Source of the DNA: a virus | Taxonomy: Duplodnaviria > Caudoviricetes | Direction: 5' to 3' (one strand) | IMG/VR virus record: IMGVR_UViG_3300017747_002940 | Coordinates: 1-35,899 of that record | Length of the DNA: 35,899 nt | Part shown: positions 359-35,420 of the stretch, in pieces | How positions within the stretch are numbered: the first letter of the stretch is position 1 | Layout of the letters: each line of letters opens with the position of its first letter | Program-made: the position numbers and the translations under genes | Notes under the pieces: generated by a model | Database searches by the model: none | What the model saw: the letters and a program-made list of their open reading frames with translations, nothing else | What the model was told of the DNA's origin: nothing

Positions 359-451
359 TCATCCTTTGTTGGTGCGCCACCAGTGAAACCTAACCCCTCG
401 GTCAACCGGAGAGCCCACGGCAAGTGTGGTGGCGTTATCAGGCTTTGTCAT
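359..451 (-). CDS. Leader peptide starting inside attC-like site (MTKPDNATTLAVGSPVDRGVRFHWWRTNKG)
   Basis: GGAG upstream of ATG 451 within the attC; its stop TGA overlaps the MTase ATG at 362 (ATGA). Confidence 0.5.
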   Translation of the reverse strand: MTKPDNATTLAVGSPVDRGVRFHWWRTNKG

Positions 452-483
452 GGGTGGTCTCCCGGTTACCTCGAACGTTAGGC
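388..483 (+). mobile_element. attC-like site 2 (96 bp)
   Basis: ACCTAAC-CCCTC-GGTCAACC...GGTTACC-TCGAAC-GTTAGGC. Confidence 0.9.
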
Positions 484-755
484 GGACGCAAATACCGGCG
501 CCCGTGGCCTCTCTGCTTTTCAGCCAAGAAAAACTCTGCGTCCTTGTTGACGCAGCCGCCGTCCGGGTCAAGAAACCACCAAGCATCTGTGAAGTCGTCA
601 GAAATCAGCGGCGCCCGCGTCTTCCAGTCGCACTTCACGGCCAGCACATAGCGGCGGCGGTTTGCCGTGGCATGGGCCACGATGAGAAACAGCCACCACG
701 AGTCTTCGGCCTCGTTTGTCGCTGCCCAGTAATCACCTGCTTTTATGTGACTCAT
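438..755 (-). CDS. Hypothetical cassette protein
   Basis: GAGG RBS upstream; C-terminus PNVRGNRETTHDKA is read from the neighbouring attC. Confidence 0.7.
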   Translation of the reverse strand: MSHIKAGDYWAATNEAEDSWWLFLIVAHATANRRRYVLAVKCDWKTRAPLISDDFTDAWWFLDPDGGCVNKDAEFFLAEKQRGHGRRYLRPPNVRGNRETTHDKA

Positions 756-781
756 GCGTTTCCTCGTTTGTCCACAGCGCC

Positions 782-839
782 GCCTAACCCATCGCTCAAC
801 TTGACCGCCTACGGCGGCAAGTTAGCTCGAACGTTAGGC
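782..839 (+). mobile_element. attC-like site 3 (58 bp)
   Basis: GCCTAAC-CCATC-GCTCAACT...AGTTAGC-TCGAAC-GTTAGGC. Confidence 0.92.
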
Positions 840-840
840 G

Positions 841-1074
841 TCAGCATTGAGCGCAATAAGCAAGACGGCCAGCGTGCGTCAGTTCGTAGCCAGATACAGT
901 GCAAGGCCACGGGCTATGCCCTACGCGCATTTCCGTTTTGCGAAGAAATCCTTCGTTTACCAATTTGTCAGCTAACTTCGATTTTGTCTGCATCAGATGC
1001 ACGCCTTTTGTAAGCGCGGCATTTACCTCTGCGTCAAACGCTTTTTCAAGCAATGCAAGTTCTCTTGAGTTCAT
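841..1074 (-). CDS. Hypothetical cassette protein (possible winged helix)
   Basis: MNSRELALLEKAF...YELTHAGR; AGGA RBS; fills the cassette. Confidence 0.7.
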   Translation of the reverse strand: MNSRELALLEKAFDAEVNAALTKGVHLMQTKSKLADKLVNEGFLRKTEMRVGHSPWPCTVSGYELTHAGRLAYCAQC

Positions 1075-1095
1075 TCCTATTTCCCTTCTGAGCCA

Positions 1096-1146
1096 GCCTA
1101 ACAGCCCGGTCAAGCCGACCTTCGGCGGCTTACCTAATCGTTGGGC
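1096..1146 (+). mobile_element. attC-like site 4 (51 bp)
   Basis: GCCTAAC-AGCCC-GGTCAAGC...GCTTACC-TAATC-GTTGGGC. Confidence 0.88.
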
Positions 1147-1388
1147 GTCTTTCCCGGCGCCCGCATCTTTTGTGTTGGCACGGCTTGCACAAACACGGCG
1201 AACAACTCAATTCCAGCCTCCCTCATCATCCTGTCGGTGGGTGCCCTTCGCCCGCTAGTAACTGTGGTCACAAACGTCGGCGTGATCCCCCAGTGCCGGG
1301 CGGCAGCAGCTTGCGTGCCGTGCACAGACTGAATGTGTGCAAGCACCATGACGCCTAGTTGCCGCTTCAGTTCGTCCGCAATCTTCAT
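1134..1388 (-). CDS. Small HTH (Cro/XRE-like) cassette protein
   Basis: GTQAAAARHWGITPTFVTTVTSGRRAP resembles a Cro/XRE HTH. Confidence 0.65.
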   Translation of the reverse strand: MKIADELKRQLGVMVLAHIQSVHGTQAAAARHWGITPTFVTTVTSGRRAPTDRMMREAGIELFAVFVQAVPTQKMRAPGKTPND

Positions 1389-1410
1389 TCTGTGCCTTCG
1401 TTCGCCAGCC

Positions 1411-1468
1411 GCCCAACCCCCGCATGCAGCGGAGCCCCTACGGCGCCCGCTGATGCTGGCCGTTAGGC
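1411..1468 (+). mobile_element. attC-like site 5 (58 bp)
   Basis: GCCCAAC-CCCCG-CATGCAGC...GCTGATG-CTGGCC-GTTAGGC. Confidence 0.88.
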
Positions 1469-1744
1469 CCCATACCCGGCGCGCTGACTATCAATCAGGT
1501 CTGCCACCATCTGTGCGTCATCGCCGCATGCTTTGAACAGCGCATCGGTTAGCACGCGAAGTTCTGCGTCTTGCGCCCTCACCAGTGCAGCCCAGCGTTT
1601 GCGCTTGCCGGCCCATGTCTGGTTTATCGTGTCGTCCAGTTCGCGCAGCACGGCATCGCGCGTGGGGCCTAACCCCTCGCTCAAGCCGAGCCCCAACAGC
1701 GGATCAGGCTGCTGTGGCGTGTCGGTAGCTTTGTCGTCATTCAT
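1463..1744 (-). CDS. Hypothetical cassette protein starting inside attC loop
   Basis: GGAG RBS and ATG 1744 lie within attC 6; stop TAA lies in the R' box at 1463. Confidence 0.7.
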   Translation of the reverse strand: MNDDKATDTPQQPDPLLGLGLSEGLGPTRDAVLRELDDTINQTWAGKRKRWAALVRAQDAELRVLTDALFKACGDDAQMVADLIDSQRAGYGA

Positions 1745-1789
1745 GCTTCTTCTCCCGCTGTTGTGTCCGGCTTAGCTCGAACGTTAGGC
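1667..1789 (+). mobile_element. attC-like site 6 (123 bp)
   Basis: GCCTAAC-CCCTC-GCTCAAGC...GCTTAGC-TCGAAC-GTTAGGC. Confidence 0.9.
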
Positions 1790-2119
1790 GTCAAAGTCCA
1801 GCGCCTTTTGCATGCGTGTCATGGATGCTTCCGGCTCGGGGTGCTTGTGTGCCGTACACAGCTCTTCAATGATGCCAATTGCCTCACGCAACGCCTGATC
1901 AAGCATGTCACGGTGCGCCTGAAGATCGGCCATCGTATGTTGCGCGTACTCCAGCGCCTTGGCCGGGTTGCACGCGCTGCAACCGTCTCCCAACAGGTAC
2001 TGCGTAAACGTGCATTTGCATCCGGTCGTGGCGTTGACGCCTAACCCCAAATTCGACTTGAGAGCCAACGGCGTGTTGGCGGGCGTAGCGTCGTGCGCTT
2101 CGGTTGGTTTCGTGGTCAT
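1784..2119 (-). CDS. Hypothetical cassette protein with Cys motif, starting inside attC loop
   Basis: CKCTFTQYLLGDGCSACNP; ATG 2119 in attC 7; stop in R' box at 1784. Confidence 0.7.
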   Translation of the reverse strand: MTTKPTEAHDATPANTPLALKSNLGLGVNATTGCKCTFTQYLLGDGCSACNPAKALEYAQHTMADLQAHRDMLDQALREAIGIIEELCTAHKHPEPEASMTRMQKALDFDA

Positions 2120-2152
2120 CGCGTTGTCTCAAAGTCAATTTGAACGTTATGC
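2039..2152 (+). mobile_element. attC-like site 7 (114 bp)
   Basis: GCCTAAC-CCCAA-ATTCGACT...AGTCAAT-TTGAAC-GTTATGC. Confidence 0.85.
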
Positions 2153-2156
2153 AGCA

Positions 2157-2480
2157 TCAAAACAGGTCCGCCGTCATCGCCGCAGCTTTGCGGGTGGCGT
2201 AGGCGGTGCGCTTGTGGTGCTCGGCGTCATAGGTCAGGTGGCACCGCTGGCACATCGCCTTGAGGTTGTGCGCGTCGCAGTTCTCAGGCGTGTGGTCCAG
2301 ATGCGCCACAGTCAGCACAACCCGCGATCCGGTCACCGGGTGCAGCGTGCCATTGGCTGCTCGGCAGTCCGGGTATGCCGGCGAACCTTCACACAGTTGG
2401 TGCGCTCGCTCGCGAATCGCGTCAGCAATGCGCTTCCAGTCCTTCGGGTAGCGCGCTTTGTTTTCCGGTCGTATCGGCAT
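2157..2480 (-). CDS. HNH-like endonuclease cassette protein
   Basis: LTVAHLDHTPENCDAHNLKAMCQRCH HNH motif; AAGGTG RBS. Confidence 0.8.
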   Translation of the reverse strand: MPIRPENKARYPKDWKRIADAIRERAHQLCEGSPAYPDCRAANGTLHPVTGSRVVLTVAHLDHTPENCDAHNLKAMCQRCHLTYDAEHHKRTAYATRKAAAMTADLF

Positions 2481-2502
2481 ATGTTCACCTTTCACCAATG
2501 CT

Positions 2503-2611
2503 GCATAACCATTCGCTCAACCGGACCCATTGCGGCGTGCCGCCATTTGGGCTAAACACATAGCCCAAATGCCGTCCCGCCGCAACGGTCCGGTTAGCTC
2601 AAACGTTAGGC
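2503..2611 (+). mobile_element. attC-like site 8 (109 bp, long internal stem)
   Basis: GCATAAC-CATTC-GCTCAACC...GGTTAGC-TCAAAC-GTTAGGC; inner ATTTGGGCTA/TAGCCCAAAT stem. Confidence 0.9.
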
Positions 2612-2613
2612 GC

Positions 2614-2856
2614 TCAGTAGTCCACGCCGATCACAAGCGGCCCCATGTGCAGGTACACCATGCACCAGCCCTGAGCGTAGGTCGTCACGAGCCGCCAGCG
2701 CTTCGGGCCGCGGCCGGGCCAGTCGCCCCAGTGCCAAGTCCAGTGACCGCGAGTTGCAGCAATCCAGCATTCGCGCAGCCATCCACCGCCGCGCCTAACC
2801 CCTCGCTCAACCTGACCCAAATGGGCAGGCGCCGCCGTCTTGTGTTCATGCTTCAT
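2614..2856 (-). CDS. Hypothetical Trp-rich cassette protein starting inside attC loop
   Basis: ATG 2856 in attC 9; N-terminal GQVERGVRR is the attC L''/R'' read antisense. Confidence 0.6.
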   Translation of the reverse strand: MKHEHKTAAPAHLGQVERGVRRGGGWLRECWIAATRGHWTWHWGDWPGRGPKRWRLVTTYAQGWCMVYLHMGPLVIGVDY

Positions 2857-2894
2857 CTGCTGCCCCTTTGGTCAGGTTAGCTCAAACGTTAGGC
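2793..2894 (+). mobile_element. attC-like site 9 (102 bp)
   Basis: GCCTAAC-CCCTC-GCTCAACC...GGTTAGC-TCAAAC-GTTAGGC. Confidence 0.9.
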
Positions 2895-3139
2895 CCTTCA
2901 ATCGGCGGGTACACAAACTCGCGCGTGCCGTTCTGGCGTAGCGGAGTGATGACCCCCTGCCGCTCAAAGTGCTCCAGAATCCGCGCCGCTTGGTTGTAGC
3001 CAATCCGCAGATTCCGCTGCAAGAAGGTAAGCGTTATCCGGCCTGGGTTCGCAAGCAACAGCGCCAGCGCGTCGTCTATGTGCTGTGCCGTCACCAGCGA
3101 CAGGCCGGGCCGGTTCTCTATCGGTGTCAGTTCAATCAT
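2882..3139 (-). CDS. Stand-alone FtsK gamma-domain protein (cassette)
   Basis: ITLTFLQRNLRIGYNQAARILEHFERQGVITP...NGTREF matches the FtsK gamma winged-helix signature (LQRxxRIGYNRAARLIE). Confidence 0.85.
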   Translation of the reverse strand: MIELTPIENRPGLSLVTAQHIDDALALLLANPGRITLTFLQRNLRIGYNQAARILEHFERQGVITPLRQNGTREFVYPPIEGPNV

Positions 3140-3161
3140 CTGCTCGCTCCGGTTACAACGG

Positions 3162-3227
3162 GCCTAACCCGTCGTCCGACCTGACAGCCCCGGCAAGCCG
3201 GGTCTGCAGGCCGACTCTGCGTTAGGG
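3162..3227 (+). mobile_element. attC-like site 10 (66 bp)
   Basis: GCCTAAC-CCGTC-GTCCGACC...GGCCGAC-TCTGC-GTTAGGG (one L-box mismatch). Confidence 0.8.
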
Positions 3228-3589
3228 CTGTAGTGGCGCACCACCGCCATCAATTCATCCTCTGTCGGCGGGCGTGGCGGTTGGTCGCTGAACAGCAACC
3301 ACGCGCCTTCAGTTCGGCCCCGGCTCTTGTACCAAGTCACCCATAACGCCAGCGCGCCGCCTGCGCCTTCAACGTTGTCAACTTGCACCGTCGCGTACTT
3401 CTGATCTTCGCAATATCGGTAATCCACGCCGCTCGGCATCGGGCTTTGGCCTTCGTACACCAGATCGCGCAGTGCGTTCACGCTGGCGCAGTTCCAGTTT
3501 TCGGCGTGGAACGCGCCCCGCTTAAAGGCGCACGTTGGGTCGTCGCCGGGCCAGGTCTTGCCACGCTTCTTGCACTCTTCACAGTTCAT
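3164..3589 (-). CDS. Hypothetical cassette protein
   Basis: GGAG RBS; MNCEECKKRGKTW...WYKSRGRTE; reads through the whole of attC 10. Confidence 0.75.
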   Translation of the reverse strand: MNCEECKKRGKTWPGDDPTCAFKRGAFHAENWNCASVNALRDLVYEGQSPMPSGVDYRYCEDQKYATVQVDNVEGAGGALALWVTWYKSRGRTEGAWLLFSDQPPRPPTEDELMAVVRHYSPNAESACRPGLPGLSGRTTG

Positions 3590-3608
3590 CGCGTTTCTCC
3601 AACAACAG

Positions 3609-3668
3609 CCCTAACTACTCGCTCAAGCCGAGCCCGCACGGCGGGCCGGCTTAGCTCGAACGTTAGGC
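3609..3668 (+). mobile_element. attC-like site 11 (60 bp, canonical)
   Basis: CCCTAAC-TACTC-GCTCAAGC-CGAGCCCGCACGGCGGGCCG-GCTTAGC-TCGAAC-GTTAGGC; extra C in L'' and extra A in the stem. Confidence 0.93.
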
Positions 3669-3955
3669 GCTGCAATCCTGTATCGCGCGTACCCGCATTT
3701 TTCAACAATTCCAGCATCCAGCAGCTTGCGCATCGCTTGGTCAACGGAGGTCACCGACACATCAAGCACAACAGCCACCTCGGCCGTCTTCATGGGTGCC
3801 CGGAACTCTGCCAAAGTCAGCAGAATCTTCGCCTGTGTTTTTGGCGGCTTTCCAAGCCTGCCGCCGTGCACGCCGCGCCTAACCTTTCGGTCAAGCAGAG
3901 CGCCAACGGCGGCCACGCCGTCACGCTCCGGGTCAGTCTGTAGCGCCGTTGTCAC
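3623..3955 (-). CDS. Winged-helix DNA-binding cassette protein starting inside attC loop
   Basis: ILLTLAEFRAPMKTAEVAVVLDVSVTSVDQAMRKLLDAGIVEK wHTH pattern; GGAGG RBS then GTG 3955 inside attC 12. Confidence 0.7.
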   Translation of the reverse strand: MTTALQTDPERDGVAAVGALLDRKVRRGVHGGRLGKPPKTQAKILLTLAEFRAPMKTAEVAVVLDVSVTSVDQAMRKLLDAGIVEKCGYARYRIAAPNVRAKPARRAGSA

Positions 3956-3976
3956 CTGCTTACCTCCACGTTAGGC
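3877..3976 (+). mobile_element. attC-like site 12 (100 bp)
   Basis: GCCTAAC-CTTTC-GGTCAAGC...GCTTACC-TCCAC-GTTAGGC. Confidence 0.88.
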
Positions 3977-3989
3977 ATCACAAAACCCG

Positions 3990-4286
3990 CTAAGCACGTT
4001 CCGCTGCAATGGCCGCGTCCAGCAGTTCGCGCAGCGGGCCAGGCCGGTATGCGGCATCCTTGTAGTGCTCGTCCCAGTCATCCCAGCCAGTGCCGTTCTC
4101 GTCCACGGCCACGCACCACGCGGCCAGCATGGCAATGGCAATGTCGCGCTCCTTCACCAGTTCCTCGCGCTCATCGGCGCGGCCTTCGGCGTAGGCTTCC
4201 TCCAGCGTCGGGGGCAGCACGTTCGCCAGTTCAGCGGCTTCTTCGGTGTTCAGGCCGTCAGGCGGCTGGAAATTGTCGTGGCTCAT
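3990..4286 (-). CDS. Hypothetical cassette protein
   Basis: AAGGA RBS; NGTGWDDWDEHYKDAAYRPGPLRELLD. Confidence 0.75.
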   Translation of the reverse strand: MSHDNFQPPDGLNTEEAAELANVLPPTLEEAYAEGRADEREELVKERDIAIAMLAAWCVAVDENGTGWDDWDEHYKDAAYRPGPLRELLDAAIAAERA

Positions 4287-4316
4287 ATCGTCCTTTCGTT
4301 GTTCGTCAACAGTGAT

Positions 4317-4374
4317 GCCTAACCCCGCAATTCAAGCCGACCGGCGTACCGGCGGCTTAATTGCAACGTAAGGC
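4317..4374 (+). mobile_element. attC-like site 13 (58 bp; R' is GTAAGGC instead of GTTAGGC)
   Basis: GCCTAAC-CCCGCA-ATTCAAGC...GCTTAAT-TGCAAC-GTAAGGC. Confidence 0.85.
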
Positions 4375-4620
4375 GCTTACCGGCACGCTAGCAAAGGCAT
4401 GCTCGCAGCAGCTACCCAGCTTCTTCACTGGGAAGCCGCCAATGCCGCAGCGGTTGGCTTGAACGCCGTACTTTTCAACGTCCCACACGCCGGGTTGCTT
4501 CTGAATCCAGGCTGGCAGCGTCATCGTCGCCACGCGGTGCGCGCAGTTTCCGCACACGCCAGCGATCAACCTTGGCGTGTACTGCTGCGCCTCAATGGCG
4601 GCTTTGTGTTTCTTGCTCAT
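4357..4620 (-). CDS. Hypothetical Cys-rich cassette protein
   Basis: CGNCAH...RCGIGGFPVKKLGSCCEH; GAGG RBS. Confidence 0.75.
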   Translation of the reverse strand: MSKKHKAAIEAQQYTPRLIAGVCGNCAHRVATMTLPAWIQKQPGVWDVEKYGVQANRCGIGGFPVKKLGSCCEHAFASVPVSALRCN

Positions 4621-4649
4621 GCTTGCTTCCCCTCGTTTATCAACCACGC

Positions 4650-4709
4650 GCCTAACCCCTCGCTCAAGCGGGACCGCCTGACGGCGGCCCCTTAGCTCGA
4701 ACGTTAGGC
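4650..4709 (+). mobile_element. attC-like site 14 (60 bp)
   Basis: GCCTAAC-CCCTC-GCTCAAGC...CCTTAGC-TCGAAC-GTTAGGC. Confidence 0.9.
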
Positions 4710-4710
4710 A

Positions 4711-5055
4711 TCACTGAATACGCACCGTGCGGCCGCCGTGGCGCAGAACTTCACCACGCTCGCCAATGGTCACCGGGTCGTCGCGGTGTACGCGCAGCGC
4801 CTGCTTGATCGCTGTCTCTGCGTTGCGCTGGTACTTGTCATACTCGGCTTGCAAGCGCTTCAACTTGTCGGCGGCCTCGCGCTCGATTTCGCCTATGCGG
4901 TCGCTCCGCGGCGGCGAGTAAAACGCCATGCCGTAGTGCTCATGCCCGCCTTCTGCGCCGCCAGCCAAGCAGTCAAGCTGCTCTGGCGTCAGCTTCAGGC
5001 CGCACTCGTCTGCGGCTTCGGCGATGCAATCTTTCCAATAGTCACTGTTGCTCAT
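4711..5055 (-). CDS. Hypothetical cassette protein
   Basis: MSNSDYWKDCIAEAADECG...HEHYGMAFYSPP; AGGA RBS. Confidence 0.75.
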   Translation of the reverse strand: MSNSDYWKDCIAEAADECGLKLTPEQLDCLAGGAEGGHEHYGMAFYSPPRSDRIGEIEREAADKLKRLQAEYDKYQRNAETAIKQALRVHRDDPVTIGERGEVLRHGGRTVRIQ

Positions 5056-5078
5056 ATTCGTCCTATCGTTGTAGTGAT

Positions 5079-5179
5079 GCCTAACCCCGCAATTCAAGCG
5101 GAGGCCCAACGGCATCAGCTTTGGTGGCTTCTTCGTACATGGTCACGCCGTTGGTCTCCGCTTAATTGCAACGTTAAGC
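5079..5179 (+). mobile_element. attC-like site 15 (101 bp; last of array)
   Basis: GCCTAAC-CCCGCA-ATTCAAGC...GCTTAAT-TGCAAC-GTTAAGC. Confidence 0.88.
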
Positions 5180-5554
5180 CCCAAATAAGCTGCCAGGCGT
5201 GCCAACAGGTGGCGGGGCTTCAGGCCTCGCGCTGCCTTCCCATGCTGTCGCCAGCAGTGCCAGTAATTCCTGGTCACTGTCCGCGCGCAGCAGCCGGTCG
5301 TGTGCGTTCACGCAGATGGATTGCAGGCGGGCAATCTCTGCGGGCGGGCTTGCTGCCAGGGCTGCGCGCTCTTGCCACAGCGCCCATGCCAGATCGACCG
5401 GATAGTCCTTGTAGTTCCCCGGCCATGCGCTGGTGTGGTCGTCGGGCCAGCGCTCGGTGTTGCGCTCGTAGGGCGGGCCACTGATAGTGCGCTCAAACGC
5501 AGTGCGCTCGGCATCCGTGGGCGCAGGCAGTGCGCTTGTTGTGTTGGTGGTCAT
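5174..5554 (-). CDS. Hypothetical early protein
   Basis: ATGA coupling with the upstream gene at 5551-5554; stop TAA in the last R' box. Confidence 0.7.
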   Translation of the reverse strand: MTTNTTSALPAPTDAERTAFERTISGPPYERNTERWPDDHTSAWPGNYKDYPVDLAWALWQERAALAASPPAEIARLQSICVNAHDRLLRADSDQELLALLATAWEGSARPEAPPPVGTPGSLFGA

Positions 5555-5979
5555 GCTCTTGTCCCCAATGGGAAATTGATCGGATTGTTTGCGTAGTGCC
5601 AAATGCTGGCAATTTGCACCGGCCGACGCCATGAATAATTGCGCGGTTCAACGGTTTGCGCTTTTGCTGGCTTTGGCAATTTTGGGCTTGTTGCCGTTTT
5701 TATGCGCTTGCGTTCTCGGGCTCGCTTACGCTTCCGCTCTTTCCGTTGCTCAGAGAAAACAGCATAGATACCGACAGGCCCGTAGCGGTTATTGGGGCCT
5801 TTGGTCATTTCGGAGAGCCCGCGTCCAGCAAGAACGCGCATGTATGCCTGGGCATGATGCACTGTCAGCCCAGTAGCTGCGCACACATCAATTAAGCGTA
5901 TGCCGGCCATACCTGAACCCAGCACCAGCGACAAAACTTGTTGCAGCTTTGCTTCGGGCATTGCGTATTGGCCTTTCAT
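5551..5979 (-). CDS. Hypothetical basic protein (possible wHTH)
   Basis: ATGA-coupled on both sides. Confidence 0.6.
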   Translation of the reverse strand: MKGQYAMPEAKLQQVLSLVLGSGMAGIRLIDVCAATGLTVHHAQAYMRVLAGRGLSEMTKGPNNRYGPVGIYAVFSEQRKERKRKRARERKRIKTATSPKLPKPAKAQTVEPRNYSWRRPVQIASIWHYANNPINFPLGTRA

Positions 5980-6473
5980 TTAATCGCCAGCCTCCAACCT
6001 TGCGCCAGCGTCACGCCCGGGATGTCTGCACCGCCTTGAATTGCGGTCTTCAGAAGCGCTTTGTCCGGTTCTGGCTCTGGCGCAGGCTTTTGACGCATGT
6101 ATTGCGCAGGAATTACGGCGCCGTCTGCAATCTGTACGGCTGGCGGCTTCTTTGCTATCTTTGCCGCCCATTCGTCGGTTGCAATCTCTGTTGTTCCCGT
6201 CGTCTGCATGTGTGTGAGTGCGTATTCCCGCAAAGCCTCTGCACGGCTGTCCAACGTTTTTGCGCGGTCGGCCATGCGCTTTGCTGCATCCTTGGCGCCA
6301 CCGGCCAAAATGTCAAGTTCCAAGCCATACGCGATGACTGCGCGCAACTTGTCGTGCAAGTCCCCCTGTAGGCTTTCTATGGTGTCGCGCACCACTTCGA
6401 CGGGCATGTCTACGTCTGCCAGTTCGGCAAGCTGGGTGCGGTATTCGGCTGCAATGTGAAAAAGGGCGGTCAT
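5976..6473 (-). CDS. Siphovirus Gp157-like protein
   Basis: Coiled coil then KIAKKPPAVQI...IPAQYM...PEPDKALLKTAIQGGADIPGVTL; sits next to the SSAP as is typical. Confidence 0.8.
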   Translation of the reverse strand: MTALFHIAAEYRTQLAELADVDMPVEVVRDTIESLQGDLHDKLRAVIAYGLELDILAGGAKDAAKRMADRAKTLDSRAEALREYALTHMQTTGTTEIATDEWAAKIAKKPPAVQIADGAVIPAQYMRQKPAPEPEPDKALLKTAIQGGADIPGVTLAQGWRLAIK

Positions 6474-7105
6474 GTTGTCACTTTCTGGACTTTCGCCATC
6501 TTGGTTGCTTGTGCTGCAAGAAATTGGCTTTCAGCATCGCCGTCGTTTTCAGCGCGGGCTTCTTCAATGGCTTCGTGTGTCAATCGCTTGCACTCGCCCA
6601 CGGTCGGCGAAAACTGGATTGCCTCCAGCCACGCGGCCAGCCATTGCGCACGATCCGGGCTGTCTGTGCGTGGCTCGTCGGCATGCAAATCTCCTTTGTG
6701 CCACAAGTCCAGCGCCGCACCGAAGCGCATGGCGGCATTGCGCAGAGCATCCCCAATGCGCTCCTTCATGGCGGCTGGGCCGGTCTTGCCTTCAGCGTCC
6801 CCGTAGCCCATGCGCGTAACCCCGCAGATGGTAAGGCGAATCCACAAGCCCCCATTGCTGTCCAGCTTGGGCAAGCCATCCCCGTCAAAGGCCACCGGCG
6901 CCCATGTCCAAGTGGGGTCGGTGTCCAGCAGTCGATCCGTTAAAGCTGCGTGGCCCACGTAATCAAGGTGCATGGCCGGCAGCCCGTGATAGCCACCGCA
7001 CTCTGGACAGTTGCCCTTAGGTGAGTCTTTTTTGTACGGCTTGGGTAGCTTGCTGATTTGGTGCGCAGGAAAGGGGGTGCGCAGAAGTTGCAATTTGTCG
7101 CTCAT
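6470..7105 (-). CDS. Rad52/Rad22 (Sak-like) single-strand annealing protein
   Basis: LDYVGHAALTDRL...KERIGDALRNAAMRFGAALDLW resembles the Rad52-family motif. Confidence 0.75.
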   Translation of the reverse strand: MSDKLQLLRTPFPAHQISKLPKPYKKDSPKGNCPECGGYHGLPAMHLDYVGHAALTDRLLDTDPTWTWAPVAFDGDGLPKLDSNGGLWIRLTICGVTRMGYGDAEGKTGPAAMKERIGDALRNAAMRFGAALDLWHKGDLHADEPRTDSPDRAQWLAAWLEAIQFSPTVGECKRLTHEAIEEARAENDGDAESQFLAAQATKMAKVQKVTT

Positions 7106-7112
7106 GTAAACC

Positions 7113-7226
7113 TCAAAACGGCGGGCGTTGGACGGTCGTTTTCCATGCTTGGAACAGCGCTTGGTGCATTGGCAAGTGACCGCGCAGCAGGCGATACATC
7201 AGCAAAAATGTACGGGCGCGGCTCAT
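7113..7226 (-). CDS. Small hypothetical protein
   Basis: ATGA-coupled; MSRARTFLLMYRLLRGHL. Confidence 0.45.
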   Translation of the reverse strand: MSRARTFLLMYRLLRGHLPMHQALFQAWKTTVQRPPF

Positions 7227-7378
7227 GTCGCGCTCACGCGGGTCAGAATCACCAGCCACGCCACCACTGCCACCAGCAGGACGGCAATCACGAAGTCTGC
7301 CATGTGCCCGTGACGATTGATAGCATCCAGGTGACCGTCGAATTCTTCGTCGGTCATGTCCCGAATGCGGCGGTTCAT
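7223..7378 (-). CDS. Small membrane protein (51 aa)
   Basis: Manual translation MNRRIRDMTDEEFDGHLDAINRHGHMADFVIAVLLVAVVAWLVILTRVSAT; AGGAG RBS. Confidence 0.6.
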   Translation of the reverse strand: MNRRIRDMTDEEFDGHLDAINRHGHMADFVIAVLLVAVVAWLVILTRVSAT

Positions 7379-7545
7379 TGCTTGCTCCTGACGATTTCAT
7401 CCAGCATGGCATGCAAACGCGCCCGACGTGCGGCTGCTTCACGCTCGCGCAAGGCTTGCAATGCCTGTTCGTTGGCGCGTGTTTGCATCGGCGTCAGGGC
7501 CGGGAAAGGCCAGGGGCTAGGCCCCCAGTGATGTGTGGCTTTCAT
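7375..7545 (-). CDS. Small hypothetical protein (56 aa)
   Basis: GGAGG RBS, ATGA coupling; MKATHHWGPSPWPFP. Confidence 0.55.
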   Translation of the reverse strand: MKATHHWGPSPWPFPALTPMQTRANEQALQALREREAAARRARLHAMLDEIVRSKQ

Positions 7546-7832
7546 GCTACCTCCGACTGGTAGCGCTCAACTTGAGCAGCAGCCAGGAAGTCGGCGCGCT
7601 CGATAGCCGCGTCCGCAACATCGTCGGCGTATTGCGCTTCAGACTGCCGGGTGACGGCCCAGTCGATGCAGTCGCACAGCGCAGGGCGCAGGATGTCGCG
7701 CGGGTCAACCCAGCCGTCGCGCCATTGCAATTCTGTGGCGTAGTGCGTGGGGATAGCATCTTCGTCGCTGTCATAGCGAACTGTGAACGCGACGCCATCA
7801 ACGGTGACTGTGGTTTCCAGGGGCTTGGGCAT
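7542..7832 (-). CDS. Hypothetical early protein
   Basis: First ORF after the leftward promoter. Confidence 0.65.
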   Translation of the reverse strand: MPKPLETTVTVDGVAFTVRYDSDEDAIPTHYATELQWRDGWVDPRDILRPALCDCIDWAVTRQSEAQYADDVADAAIERADFLAAAQVERYQSEVA

Positions 7833-7868
7833 GTTGCTGTCCGGTCGGTGTGTTGCTGCGATGTAGAG

Positions 7869-7897
7869 ACTGTGCCCGGATTCGGTGAGGCTGTCAA
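7869..7897 (-). promoter_or_regulatory. Leftward early promoter candidate
   Basis: TTGACA-17 bp-CACAGT on the minus strand. Confidence 0.55.
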
Positions 7898-7903
7898 CCG
7901 CTT

Positions 7904-7927
7904 TTGGTTAGGACAAACCCTAACCAA
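7904..7927. promoter_or_regulatory. Palindromic operator candidate
   Basis: TTGGTTAGG-ACAAAC-CCTAACCAA between the divergent -35 boxes. Confidence 0.55.
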
Positions 7928-7933
7928 TTCCGG

Positions 7934-7962
7934 TTGACGCCAAGCCCCACATCCGGTAATGT
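7934..7962 (+). promoter_or_regulatory. Rightward promoter candidate
   Basis: TTGACG-17 bp-TAATGT, 7 nt before ATG 7970. Confidence 0.55.
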
Positions 7963-7969
7963 CCAGCAC

Positions 7970-8176
7970 ATGAACATCAAACCACTTCCCACAATGGAAG
8001 CTGTGCGTCAAGCACTGGCGCCCCTGACGCTCAGGCAGCTAGACAAGTTGCAAGAGCTATCCGGCGTGCCGGCGACCACGGTTTACAAGATCAAGCAAGG
8101 GGAAACGGCAAACCCTGGCATTGACACGGTGCGCAAGTTTTTGCCGCACATCGAAGCCGCTAAAAAAGGAGCATGA
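7970..8176 (+). CDS. Cro-like HTH regulator
   Basis: LRQLDKLQELSGVPATTVYKIKQGETANPGIDTVRK XRE/Cro HTH. Confidence 0.8.
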   Translation: MNIKPLPTMEAVRQALAPLTLRQLDKLQELSGVPATTVYKIKQGETANPGIDTVRKFLPHIEAAKKGA

Positions 8177-8177
8177 C

Positions 8178-8315
8178 ATGCCAAGTTTTTTTGATGAGCC
8201 GCCGGAGCAACTGCAATCCACCATGCGCTGGGTTGCCGGATTTCTTCTTGGTTGCGCGTCTTGCGTTCTGCTGGTGTTGGCTGGCCTGCTGGTTCAGCTG
8301 GGGGTGTGCCGATGA
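8178..8315 (+). CDS. Small membrane protein
   Basis: AGGAG RBS; one hydrophobic helix. Confidence 0.55.
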   Translation: MPSFFDEPPEQLQSTMRWVAGFLLGCASCVLLVLAGLLVQLGVCR

Positions 8316-8485
8316 CCGGCCCGAAGCTCTACCCCCTCGGATCGCACATCAAAGGCGTCCGCAACAACAACGGCCACCGCACAAGCCAGCACCAGGCGAC
8401 AAAGGGGCGCAGCAACGCGGCAGCGGTGCCGCTTGCGCGGGTTGGGGCGGTGCTGCCGTGGGTGGCACCGACGGAAAGAGCATGA
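8312..8485 (+). CDS. Small hypothetical protein
   Basis: ATGA-coupled on both sides. Confidence 0.5.
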   Translation: MTGPKLYPLGSHIKGVRNNNGHRTSQHQATKGRSNAAAVPLARVGAVLPWVAPTERA

Positions 8486-8730
8486 ACGAGACGACTGACT
8501 TTGCCGAAATGTGGGTATCTGTGACCGCGCTGCGCAGTGCGATTGCCGGCGGCTATGTGAAGCCGGGAGGAGATGAGCGCACGACGCTTGTTCTGGCGGC
8601 AGAGATTGATAGGCTGCGCGAGGCCCTGCATGAGATTGCAGAAGCCGACATGACGACAAAGGGGTTTCAGATGATGGCCGCCGAAGCGCTGGATGCCCCT
8701 GCCCCGCCACACCCGGGGCAACAACCGTGA
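8482..8730 (+). CDS. Hypothetical protein
   Basis: ATGA-coupled; AAEIDRLREALHEIA coiled coil. Confidence 0.6.
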   Translation: MNETTDFAEMWVSVTALRSAIAGGYVKPGGDERTTLVLAAEIDRLREALHEIAEADMTTKGFQMMAAEALDAPAPPHPGQQP

Positions 8731-8736
8731 AACCCC

Positions 8737-8766
8737 TTGCGCATCTGTGCGGTAGCACGCTATGAT
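8737..8766 (+). promoter_or_regulatory. Promoter candidate upstream of replication gene
   Basis: TTGCGC-18 bp-TATGAT. Confidence 0.45.
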
Positions 8767-8771
8767 GCAAA

Positions 8772-8892
8772 CATCCATTGCTTGGCGGCGAAGGATGCAG
8801 TCATGAGGCCACTAGCTCATGCGTTCTGTGGGGGGGAAACCCCTCAACGCCGCCAAGCACAGAACGCAGCAGCTAGTGGCCTTTTTGTTTTT
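8772..8892 (+). ncRNA. Structured leader RNA / attenuator upstream of replication initiator
   Basis: Long stem 8806-8830 pairing with 8858-8882 followed by a T-run; 11-nt complement 8780-8790 / 8848-8858. Confidence 0.6.
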
Positions 8893-8900
8893 GGCGCCAT

Positions 8901-9758
8901 GTGAACTACTTTCCTTTCCATGTTGGCGATTACGCAGCCCATACGGCACACCTGGAGCCGATGGAAGACCTTGCTTATCGGCGCATGCTCGACCTGTACT
9001 ACTTGCGCGAGTGCTCGTTGCCTCATGAGCCGGCAGAAGTTGCCCGCCTGATTCGCATGCGCGCGAACGTGGCAGAGGTTGAGGCCGTGCTGCGCGAGTT
9101 TTTTACGCATACCGATGGCTGCGGTTGGAGCCATGCGCGCTGTGAAGCCGAAATTGCAAAGATGCAGGATAAACAAGCGAAGGCTAAAGCGTCCGCTCAC
9201 GCATCAGTGAATGCGCGTCAAGCGAACGCTCAACGAACGCTCAACGAACGCTCAACGCATGTTGAGCTACCAACACCAACACCAACACCAACACCAGAAG
9301 ATTCTGTAGCTAAAGCTACAGACGCCGCTGCCGCGTCGGCTCCGGTTGCTGACGCAAAGCCAAACAAGCCGCCGAAGTCGGCAGAGGACATGGCAAAGTC
9401 GGACCTCTGGCAAGCGGCTGTCTCCGTTTTGGAGGCTGGCGGCTGTCCGAAGTCGCAATGCAGGACGTTCATGGGGAAACTTGTGCAGGATTACACGCTG
9501 CTGACTGTGCAGCAGGCTGTTGCAGCCGCTGTCAGCGTACAGCCCGCTGATGCCAGGGAATACCTGAAAGCTACATGCCAGCGGCTGAAGGGGGAGCGAA
9601 AAGACCCCGTGACGGTTGCCAGCGACGCCGCGGAGAAGACAGCGGCATTTTTGGCGGCGCAATCGGCTCCCAAGCCTGGTATGACCGAGGAGCAGAGAGC
9701 AGCCCTGGCAGCGGCGCGCAGGGTAGGTGGCACAGCATCACTGAGGGCGGTAGGATGA
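8901..9758 (+). CDS. DUF1376/YdaU-family replication initiator
   Basis: MNYFPFHVGDYAAHTAHLEPMEDLAYRRMLDLYY signature; internal repeats and PTPTPT linker. Confidence 0.85.
   Translation: MNYFPFHVGDYAAHTAHLEPMEDLAYRRMLDLYYLRECSLPHEPAEVARLIRMRANVAEVEAVLREFFTHTDGCGWSHARCEAEIAKMQDKQAKAKASAHASVNARQANAQRTLNERSTHVELPTPTPTPTPEDSVAKATDAAAASAPVADAKPNKPPKSAEDMAKSDLWQAAVSVLEAGGCPKSQCRTFMGKLVQDYTLLTVQQAVAAAVSVQPADAREYLKATCQRLKGERKDPVTVASDAAEKTAAFLAAQSAPKPGMTEEQRAALAAARRVGGTASLRAVG
9223..9296 (+). repeat. Iteron-like repeats (putative origin)
   Basis: (CGAACGCTCAA)x3 at 9223-9255, inverted GTTGAGC at 9261-9267, (ACCAAC)x4 from 9269. Confidence 0.65.
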
Positions 9759-34107: not shown

Positions 34108-34127
34108 ACGCATGACTGCCTAACAAC

Positions 34128-34187
34128 GTATAGCTATGTATAGCCATGTATATCACAAGCAGCTTAGACAATACCTGCACATGGCTA
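34128..34187. repeat. 10-bp tandem repeats plus inverted repeat at the late/early convergence point
   Basis: GTATAGCTAT GTATAGCCAT GTATA; TAGCCATGT (34141) / ACATGGCTA (34179). Confidence 0.6.
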
Positions 34188-34584: not shown

Positions 34585-35337
34585 TCAAGGTATGGACAAG
34601 TTATGCGTGTTCCGCGTGCCAGCAGTCAGCAGGCGCCAGGCTGCGGCGGCAACCTGCGGCACCTGTCCATTGCCAAGAGCTTTCACGCGGGCCTTGTCCA
34701 GTGGGGTTGCCACCCCATCAACCACTCTAGCCACGTCGGGTTCGGAACCCCACGCAGCCAGTCCTTCAAGTTGGAGCATCCGCCTTTCGTCTTCGCTCGC
34801 GCCAGCGCGGCCTCTGAGCGTGCGCCCATCGCGTCCATGCAGTTTGGAGTGGGCAGCAATCCAGATTCGTTCCCTTCGATGCTTGGCGCCAAGCTCGGCA
34901 GCTCCCAGCACTCCCCATTGCGCATCAAACCCCAGCGCGGCCAGGTCTGCAAGGACAGTTCCAAGTCCTCGAACAGCGAGCATTGGGCTGTTCTCCACAA
35001 AGACGAACTCGGGTCCAACCTCGCCAACGATTCGGGCCATTTCTCGCCACATGCCGCTGCGCTCTCCGTCCAGGCCTTTGCCTTTCCCGGCTGCGCTGAT
35101 GTCCTGGCACGGAAACCCGCCCGAAACCACATCAATAGTGCCGCGCCAAGGTCTTCCGTCAAAGGTGCGAACGTCATCCCAAATTGGGAAAGGCGGGAGT
35201 GCGCCTTCATTCTGGCGGGCGGCAAGTAGCCCAGCGGCGAAGGGGTTCCACTCAACGGCACAGACAGTGCGCCACCCGACGAGCTTGCCGCCGAGTATTC
35301 CGCCACCAGCGCCCGCGAAAAGAGCCAACTCATTCAT
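34585..35337 (-). CDS. DNA cytosine-C5 methyltransferase, alpha-like chain (cassette 1)
   Basis: LFAGAGG (motif I), GGFPCQD (IV), VENS (VI), HRRERIW (VIII), ALGNG (X). Confidence 0.9.
   Translation of the reverse strand: MNELALFAGAGGGILGGKLVGWRTVCAVEWNPFAAGLLAARQNEGALPPFPIWDDVRTFDGRPWRGTIDVVSGGFPCQDISAAGKGKGLDGERSGMWREMARIVGEVGPEFVFVENSPMLAVRGLGTVLADLAALGFDAQWGVLGAAELGAKHRRERIWIAAHSKLHGRDGRTLRGRAGASEDERRMLQLEGLAAWGSEPDVARVVDGVATPLDKARVKALGNGQVPQVAAAAWRLLTAGTRNTHNLSIP
34600..34610 (+). mobile_element. Left boundary of cassette array (G|TTATGC R box with no upstream hairpin)
   Basis: GTTATGCGTGT is the reverse complement of ACACGCATAAC at 35359-35369. Confidence 0.75.
34683..35333 (-). CDS. 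Overlapping alternative-frame ORF, C5-MTase beta-like chain
   Basis: 216-aa open frame inside the MTase ending PNPTWLEWLMGWQPHWT (motif IX-like); ATG 4 nt from the alpha ATG behind the same GGAG. Confidence 0.7.
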   Translation of the reverse strand: MSWLFSRALVAEYSAASSSGGALSVPLSGTPSPLGYLPPARMKAHSRLSQFGMTFAPLTEDLGAALLMWFRAGFRARTSAQPGKAKAWTESAAACGEKWPESLARLDPSSSLWRTAQCSLFEDLELSLQTWPRWGLMRNGECWELPSLAPSIEGNESGLLPTPNCMDAMGARSEAALARAKTKGGCSNLKDWLRGVPNPTWLEWLMGWQPHWTRPA

Positions 35338-35362
35338 ACATCTCCACGCTTCGGAACCACAC

Positions 35363-35420
35363 GCATAACCCCTCGCTCGAACCGACCGCCTACGGCGGCG
35401 GTTCAGCTCGAACGTTAGGT
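35363..35420 (+). mobile_element. attC-like site 1 (58 bp)
   Basis: GCATAAC-CCCTC-GCTCGAAC...GTTCAGC-TCGAAC-GTTAGGT. Confidence 0.92.

Follow-up and report, generated by a model that had tools for sequence, protein, structure and literature searches.

Can an integron recombination site also be the beginning of a gene? attC sites are commonly viewed as recombination signals in DNA and as a hindrance to translating whatever lies behind them, and the question is raised by an array of such sites in a phage (Duplodnaviria; Caudoviricetes; IMG/VR record IMGVR_UViG_3300017747_002940). The record, called the window below, is a complete phage genome of 35,899 bases with a 123-bp terminal repeat; it holds 14 attC-like sites within positions 388–5179 and a 15th at 35363–35420, beyond the circular join. 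The explanation that we consider quite probable is that this is a phage-borne integron-type cassette array with inverted genes, in which the loops of the long attC sites act as translation-initiation modules and would add an N-terminal tag of 12–31 residues. This reading is drawn from the DNA itself, i.e., from the inverted polarity, the agreement of reading frames, matches to the Shine-Dalgarno (SD) consensus, the reuse of modules on unrelated genes, and the loss and reordering of cassettes at the R' box.

Anatomy and polarity of the array

All 15 sites carry an R'' box (RYYYAAC) and an R' box (GTTRRRY) as an inverted repeat, with GTA in place of GTT in the R' of the site at 4317. L'' and L' boxes with an extrahelical G on the bottom strand, an unpaired central spacer and a variable terminal structure are present in 14 of them, the L'' of the site at 1411 being atypical. 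The attC detector gave 0 matches in 718 kb of shuffled window and missed the site at 1411–1468, which other searches of the window recovered. As the extra base is in the left L box on the + strand, the + strand is the attC top strand, strands being assigned from the diagnostic features described in PMC2727003. Every gene between the window sites lies on the minus strand, i.e., the attC bottom strand, and the usual cassette polarity, with the gene on the top strand upstream of its attC, was not found in the window. The attC of a cassette thus adjoins or contains the start of that cassette's gene, and the gene ends where the R' of the next site lies. With 15 clustered attC sites and no gene (intI) for the integron integrase IntI found in the record, the array is a cluster of attC sites lacking integron integrases (CALIN) and not a complete integron.

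The same polarity prevails in related phage contigs. Viral loci (262) were fetched with two patterns (136 and 126 loci, with long flanks for only 80 of each), and the gene frame was called by codon score from the sequence beyond R'' alone. Among the 386 sites with enough flank, the window's included, a confident gene was called on the bottom strand at 327 and on the top strand at 3, with no call at 56. Orientation calls by longest open reading frame (ORF) were too noisy (66 bottom, 21 top and 58 ties of 145) and were replaced by these. A bacterial control of 148 loci, fetched by the second pattern and holding 196 sites, gave 73 top, 7 bottom and 116 unclear calls, as against 3 top, 315 bottom and 54 unclear for 372 viral sites. 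The published phage TJE1, itself with a CALIN, has canonical polarity by the same detector, which found 2 sites there.

Start signals within the long sites

The window sites form a short class of 51–66 bp and a long class of 96–123 bp; the division and coordinates given in the preliminary description all hold, and lengths in the viral set are likewise bimodal. The short sites, on the + strand as are the long ones, are at 782–839 (58 bp), 1096–1146 (51 bp), 1411–1468 (58 bp), 3162–3227 (66 bp), 3609–3668 (60 bp), 4317–4374 (58 bp) and 4650–4709 (60 bp), and the 15th site measures 58 bp. Genes behind short sites had been said to use a ribosome-binding site outside attC, which is borne out by an SD match of 4–5 nt in seven of seven.

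Behind four long sites the gene itself starts in the loop, in frame with the coding sequence beyond R'', as had been claimed. The 123-bp site at 1667–1789 holds GGAG (1752–1755) and ATG 1744, the start of a 93-aa gene (1463–1744, minus strand) with its first 26 codons within attC and without an SD-led start downstream. In the 114-bp site at 2039–2152 a weak GAG (2128–2130) precedes ATG 2119, which opens a 111-aa gene (1784–2119, minus) with 27 codons in the site, and conserved Cys motifs lie upstream of its next in-frame ATG (codon 63). The 102-bp site at 2793–2894 has AAGG (2865–2868) and ATG 2856, beginning an 80-aa gene (2614–2856, minus; 21 codons in the site). Finally, the 100-bp site at 3877–3976 has GGAGGT (3962–3967) in the spacer and L' and GTG 3955, the start of a 110-aa winged-helix protein gene (3623–3955, minus; Pfam HTH_5, residues 39–86), of which the first 26 codons lie within this attC and the last within the next. 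The preliminary description would have been wrong if the true starts mapped downstream of R'' and the loop signals were not conserved in homologous cassettes. For 1744 and 2119 none mapped there, and neither gene has an SD-led start before its conserved core.

Two further long sites hold leaders. The 30-aa leader at 359–451 (minus) starts at ATG 451 (GGAG at 7 nt) in the loop of the 96-bp site at 388–483, and its TGA overlaps ATG 362, as proposed; the N6/N4-type DNA methyltransferase gene behind it (5' part at 1–362, minus; the remainder reaches 35422 beyond the join) carries an SD of its own, serving ATG 356. The leader from ATG 5140 is 19 aa long and ends in R'', again as described, in the 101-bp site at 5079–5179, the first on the transcript. 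Its in-frame GTG 5146, unlike ATG 5140, has GGAG at 9 nt, so that the leader (5081–5146, minus) may be 19–21 aa long, with its TAG in R''. A 6-nt R''–L'' spacer sets this loop start in the closed frame; the spacer differs by one base from that of the relative in locus L111, the difference closing the frame, and the gene at 5055 has its own SD. Both leaders look more like modules left before genes with their own start than like required couplers, possibly with some added coupling. The sites at 4317–4374 and 5079–5179 have the same outer arms around a short and a long loop, which suggests loop exchange between sites.

Two of the earlier statements need qualification. Start codons were reported in six of the seven long loops, and these are present, but the seventh site (2503–2611, 109 bp, a near-perfect hairpin without a start module) also has ATG, GTG and TTG codons, none with a 4-nt SD match. 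A mere start codon in a long loop says little because 61–96% of shuffled loops hold an ATG or GTG, while one with an SD match of at least 4 nt occurs in 7–34%. The purine-rich sequence upstream was found for 451, 1744, 2856 and 3955, but not for 2119, with 3 nt of match only, nor for 5140, which has no SD at a usable distance. The arms of site 2503–2611, which stands before an HNH gene, are of the bacterial chromosomal type (like L336 and L296).

Reading frames and SD matches in related phages

Read on the bottom strand, the L''–R'' arm leaves two frames open, the third being interrupted by TGA and TAG. In 143 long viral sites with the gene in an open frame, an open loop ATG was found in the gene frame only at 87, in the other frame only at 8, in both at 17 and in neither at 31. 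When one gene per protein family was drawn the proportion was about 75 to 7 of 125 (binomial p about 2e-15). This agreement of the loop ATG with the gene frame is the part that chance does not explain.

The SD matches follow the same division. By a crude rule of our own (longest match to the consensus, spacing 3–12), a match of at least 4 nt was present for 77 of 102 in-frame loop ATGs, 12 of 63 out-of-frame ones and 101 of 119 ordinary starts behind short sites. Conversely, an SD-led start within 60 nt after R'' was found for 16 of 102 genes with an in-frame loop ATG, vs. 78 of 104 genes behind short sites. SD-led open loop ATGs occur in 132 of 229 viral and 23 of 119 bacterial long sites, at a purine content of 0.57 and 0.55, respectively, and it is likely that the phage start modules grew out of the purine-rich bottom-strand loops seen in bacterial attC. 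The preliminary proposal that the recombination site supplies translation signals thus appears well founded, with frame concordance, SD enrichment, scarce downstream starts and homologs that keep the loop start all pointing the same way.

Modules shared by unrelated genes

The core of the 1744 protein has 15 other relatives in the databases, of which 14 start with an attC-arm motif, nearly all with a different loop peptide. For the 2119 core such a motif is at the N-terminus of 20 of 34 relatives (19 by pattern, 1 by eye; 7 and 13 in the two frames); 14 are without it, and in some of these a Met directly precedes the Cys motif. A relative of 89% identity retains the 3955 module, which also heads 8 proteins with different bodies. 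More generally the 102 modules form 67 DNA families, and 16 of the 17 families with several members stand on more than one gene family. At loci L030 and L040 a one-base longer spacer brings the module into the frame of its gene. Pfam named 5 of 98 module-led relatives, and in four of these the model begins 5–32 residues after R'', two with a Met between, which supports the loop starts weakly. Relatives of the 1744 and 2856 gene bodies were not found in viral contigs, the pattern for the 3955 module returned just 1 viral locus, and in cultured phages matches were limited to the HNH region and one neighbour, leaving the 3955 gene and the 1667 site unmatched.

Gene bodies are also mosaic at points outside attC (1463–1663; loci L414–L422), one 35-aa core being combined with many C-terminal halves and, in L415 and L417, sitting behind another domain. 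Beyond R'', 20–35-nt leaders are common to unrelated genes. By k-mer counts a common short motif, CCGAAGCG/CCGGAGCG (LAPER-like when translated), lies 3–14 nt beyond R'' on the gene strand at many loci and at 35346–35362 of the window.

Movement of cassettes and modules

An integron cassette moves as a unit, with R'' complementary to its own core site, and both properties were found here. Of 226 cassettes, 184 have an R'' complementary to the R' of the cassette itself and 108 one complementary to the R' of the same site; for the 79 non-consensus R'' boxes the numbers are 47 vs. 7. In the window this can be seen at the sites 388, 1411, 2503 and 3609, whose unusual R'' boxes are complementary to the R' that bounds the far side of the respective gene. 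Rearrangements were read from four metagenome runs compared with the array, one of them probably the source, the contigs being relatives and not the window phage. One contig omits exactly 335 bp from R' to R' (the 4620 cassette), another fuses 3968 to 1139 from R' to R', so that the 3955 cassette, module included, adjoins the 1388 cassette, and contigs of three runs hold the 2793 site with different sequence past its R''.

Pairs of sites with the same core show what travels together. In 174 pairs with the same long core the downstream gene was common in 12, the upstream gene in 1, and both neighbours differed in 159; for short sites the downstream gene was common in 9 pairs and the upstream gene in 1. 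The break is sharp at the AAC of R', with spacer identity at random level in pairs with the same upstream gene. Whole-cassette shuffling at R' looks to be the usual event, whereas modules seem to be exchanged near R'' less often but with effects that accumulate. Crossover on the top strand is located in R'' (PMC5027507), and homology-driven exchange in the arm also fits the module exchange. Presumably IntI of the host or of a co-infecting phage shuffles whole cassettes at R', module and gene together, less frequent exchanges in or around R'' bring modules and genes into new combinations, and selection retains in-frame pairs, or pairs in which the gene has its own start as behind the two leaders.

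It is tempting, as a tentative extension, to regard the array as a gene-assembly system, in which IntI joins portable long-attC start modules to start-less coding fragments by top-strand crossover at R'' and so creates new expressible, translationally coupled cassettes. If true, cassettes would arise and N-termini be shuffled by a natural route in phage early operons, with IntI from host or phage.

Coupling and mRNA folding

Coupled expression along the array had also been suggested. At the 86 module sites with a called upstream gene, that gene stops in R' at 39, before the site at 23, and reads into the site at 24. Read-through is nearly confined to a single frame (63 of 66 cases). In some 37 of the 67 module families this frame ends within −8 to +1 of the loop ATG, as against about 5 for the other frame, and stops at −8 to −1 number 19, vs. 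2.7 in shuffles. Where the module is in phase with the read-through frame, 12 of 13 have a stop before the ATG, so that fusion is avoided. The modules therefore look built to catch ribosomes from any read-through neighbour. At the window starts 1744, 2119, 3955 and 5146 the read-through frame stops at +1. Coupling is thus supported for the design of the modules but not for the present gene order, as overlap of an upstream stop with the start was looked for at the four window genes and found at none; the present upstream neighbours of the window loop starts end 26–40 nt upstream. SD-led loop ORFs out of frame with the gene end within −5 to +1 of its start in 4 of 16 cases, some of the 16 being miscalled frames.

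In predicted mRNA folds the unpaired fraction is 0.59 for the SD and 0.66 for the ATG, vs. 0.36 for the whole site, although the mirror position is hardly lower (0.60 vs. 0.57), and both signals lie inside a predicted stem of about −49 kcal/mol. An early leftward phage transcript would run through the array, and a ribosome could load on the loop, open and rich in purines, while the 3' arm has yet to be transcribed; alternatively, it may re-initiate after an upstream gene has been read into the loop and stopped at the start codon. The bottom strand folds more readily into attC as lagging-strand template (PMC5371416), and genes co-directional with replication would put it there.

Six window genes run into the next attC (438–755, 2882–3139, 3164–3589, 3623–3955, 1134–1388 and 4357–4620), so that the order of the cassettes determines how these proteins end (the C-termini of P0002 and P0010 lie in other sites).

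Points against and alternative explanations

Several observations weigh against loop starts and IntI-driven shuffling. Homolog start sites are gene-caller output, and at locus L414 a separate SD and ATG come after the loop start that was called (P0013), so some loop starts are spurious. Of the 102 module genes, 39 have an in-frame ATG no more than 60 nt past R'' (any SD-led start: 16). GTG 3955 has alternative starts at 3916 and 3871, ATG 2119 has a weak SD, and the SD or start of 1744 and 3955 is predicted to be paired in the mRNA hairpin. Both locus patterns were drawn from the window's sites, which are themselves in the set, and pairs are not independent. Read-through genes are paired with overlap modules no better than at random (12 of 24, null 9.5, p 0.16). 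A promoter scan of 5000–9000 gave 1 site vs. 0.9 expected. The complete record has no TIGR02249 match, i.e., no integron integrase, and of the four phage records among 50 with IntI above the NCBIfam cut-off (G020, G023, G043 and G054), three were chosen knowing that the gene was there. The break at R'' is blurred, the L''–R'' spacer partly following the gene.

The last points bear on an alternative that we consider unlikely, although it survives best. The loop starts would be real, but reshuffling would be mainly homology-based, between repeated arms and by a phage single-strand annealing protein, and the attC structure would be a relic or be kept for translation control. This is compatible with the start-module explanation and differs from it in the enzyme. 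It is favoured by the missing IntI, by the annealing-protein gene at 6470–7105 and by mosaic joints outside attC as well as the blurred R'', whereas the sharp break at the AAC of R', the complementarity of R'' and R' within a cassette, the retained extrahelical base and the presence of IntI in relatives argue for the integrase. The latter genes (L062:2491–3600, L156:3766–4791, L200:1702–2688, L427 and L306:1820–2701, in phage records and one contig of a metagenome-assembled genome) lie at the end of the early operon beside excisionase- and integrase-like genes, with inverted cassettes upstream. The phage intI is at the far end of the transcript, with its position relative to attC as in the bacterial locus L269 and its direction that of the cassette genes. 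IntI was not found in four large arrays examined.

That the loop SD and ATG are by-products of a purine-rich bottom strand, with real starts downstream of R'' and the N-terminal extensions as gene-calling artefacts, is very improbable. attC bottom strands are indeed enriched in purines (PMC5027507, PMC5371416), a bottom-strand SD and ATG occurs in 29 of the 121 bacterial long sites for which a call was attempted, start codons are frequent in shuffled loops, and L414 is an actual case. On the other hand such a skew offers no means of matching the loop ATG to the frame of a gene that was called beyond R'' only, and it is at odds with the 1744 and 2119 genes, which lack an SD-led start before their conserved cores, and with the compensating spacer insertions. 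Least probable of all is a mirrored array, in which the top strand recombines and each loop starts the next-inserted cassette of an ordinary gene-then-attC order: the gene-strand layout does mirror a normal cassette, with the upstream stop often in the RYYYAAC box, most same-long-core pairs differ in both neighbours, and top-strand cleavage is in R'' (PMC5027507), but the extrahelical G is on the gene strand as in bottom strands, same-core pairs share the downstream gene more often than the upstream one, both contig rearrangements are at R', intI is placed as in the bacterial locus, and two different open frames would put half of new joins out of frame.

Genome setting

PHROGs names in the window include terminase, portal, major head, endolysin, NinB/NinG, the single-strand annealing protein and a Gam-like protein, and Rfam gave zero matches. 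The array is on the minus strand downstream of the annealing-protein and Gam-like genes and is most likely the tail of an early leftward operon. The same site pattern is found in bacterial genomes, many of them Betaproteobacteria, which suggests this group as host of the phage. The last cassette on the transcript carries a C5 DNA methyltransferase gene (34585–35337, minus) with its own SD. It is bounded by a lone core site, GTTRRRY (34600–34606, +), which complements the R'' of the site at 35363 and may be an attI-like insertion point at the left end of the array. The methyltransferase gene runs through this core and stops beside the start of the ORF 34588–34190. Where the array transcript meets the lysis genes (34118–34169) there is a lone R''-like heptamer with an AT-rich palindromic stretch and no full attC.

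Relation to known systems

One element of 100 bp would thus combine the recombination hairpin with the start of a gene and be adjusted to keep the cassettes translatable in whatever order they stand. The origin of attC and of a start in cassettes is a long-standing question, for which the same modules on dozens of unrelated genes offer a natural series. The modules also explain why many phage proteins that are not related to each other repeatedly show a false motif at their N- and C-termini, and the related records show phages with their own IntI and reversed-polarity arrays. In a full-text literature search, with subscription journals largely outside it, neither phage arrays with all genes inverted nor genes starting within attC were found to have been reported.

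CALINs in phage genomes (Qi et al. 2023, PMC9892861) resemble the window in having an attC cluster without intI and methyltransferase cassettes. The main text, from which the canonical TJE1 array is taken, describes typical cassette structure and does not mention inverted genes or starts inside attC, whereas in the window all genes are inverted and the long sites contain the gene start, although the supplementary table of 17 CALINs may include inverted cases. Complete integrons (intI, attI, Pc, attC cassettes) share the attC anatomy, the cassette rule and the crossover at R', and intI of the relatives is placed as in bacterial integrons; the phage cassette genes, however, point towards the intI/attI end, and a phage promoter on the opposite side of the array would transcribe them. 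According to Nivina et al. (2016, PMC5027507), cassettes facing the promoter are not observed in mobile or chromosomal integrons.

Translation across attC has precedents. The gcuF1-blaOXA-28 read-through (Hocquet et al. 2012, PMC3375312) also has a reading frame across attC and a fused protein, but it is a single case of two fused cassettes in canonical polarity with the start outside attC. Short ORFs in attC that aid downstream translation (Jacquier et al. 2009, as summarised in PMC8876359 and cited in PMC11511950) involve translation inside the attC hairpin on mRNA and termination-reinitiation, and the leaders at 451 and 5140 resemble them. These are, however, separate short ORFs on top-strand mRNA and an exception, whereas in the phages the mRNA is of the bottom strand, the gene's own N-terminus is encoded, and more than 100 sites are involved. 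ORF-11, ORF-17 and ORF-18 in attI1 (PMC8876359) are similar in that a recombination site gives SD and ATG to cassettes without them; there a single fixed site serves the first cassette only, whereas here each long attC bears its own module, which travels with the gene.

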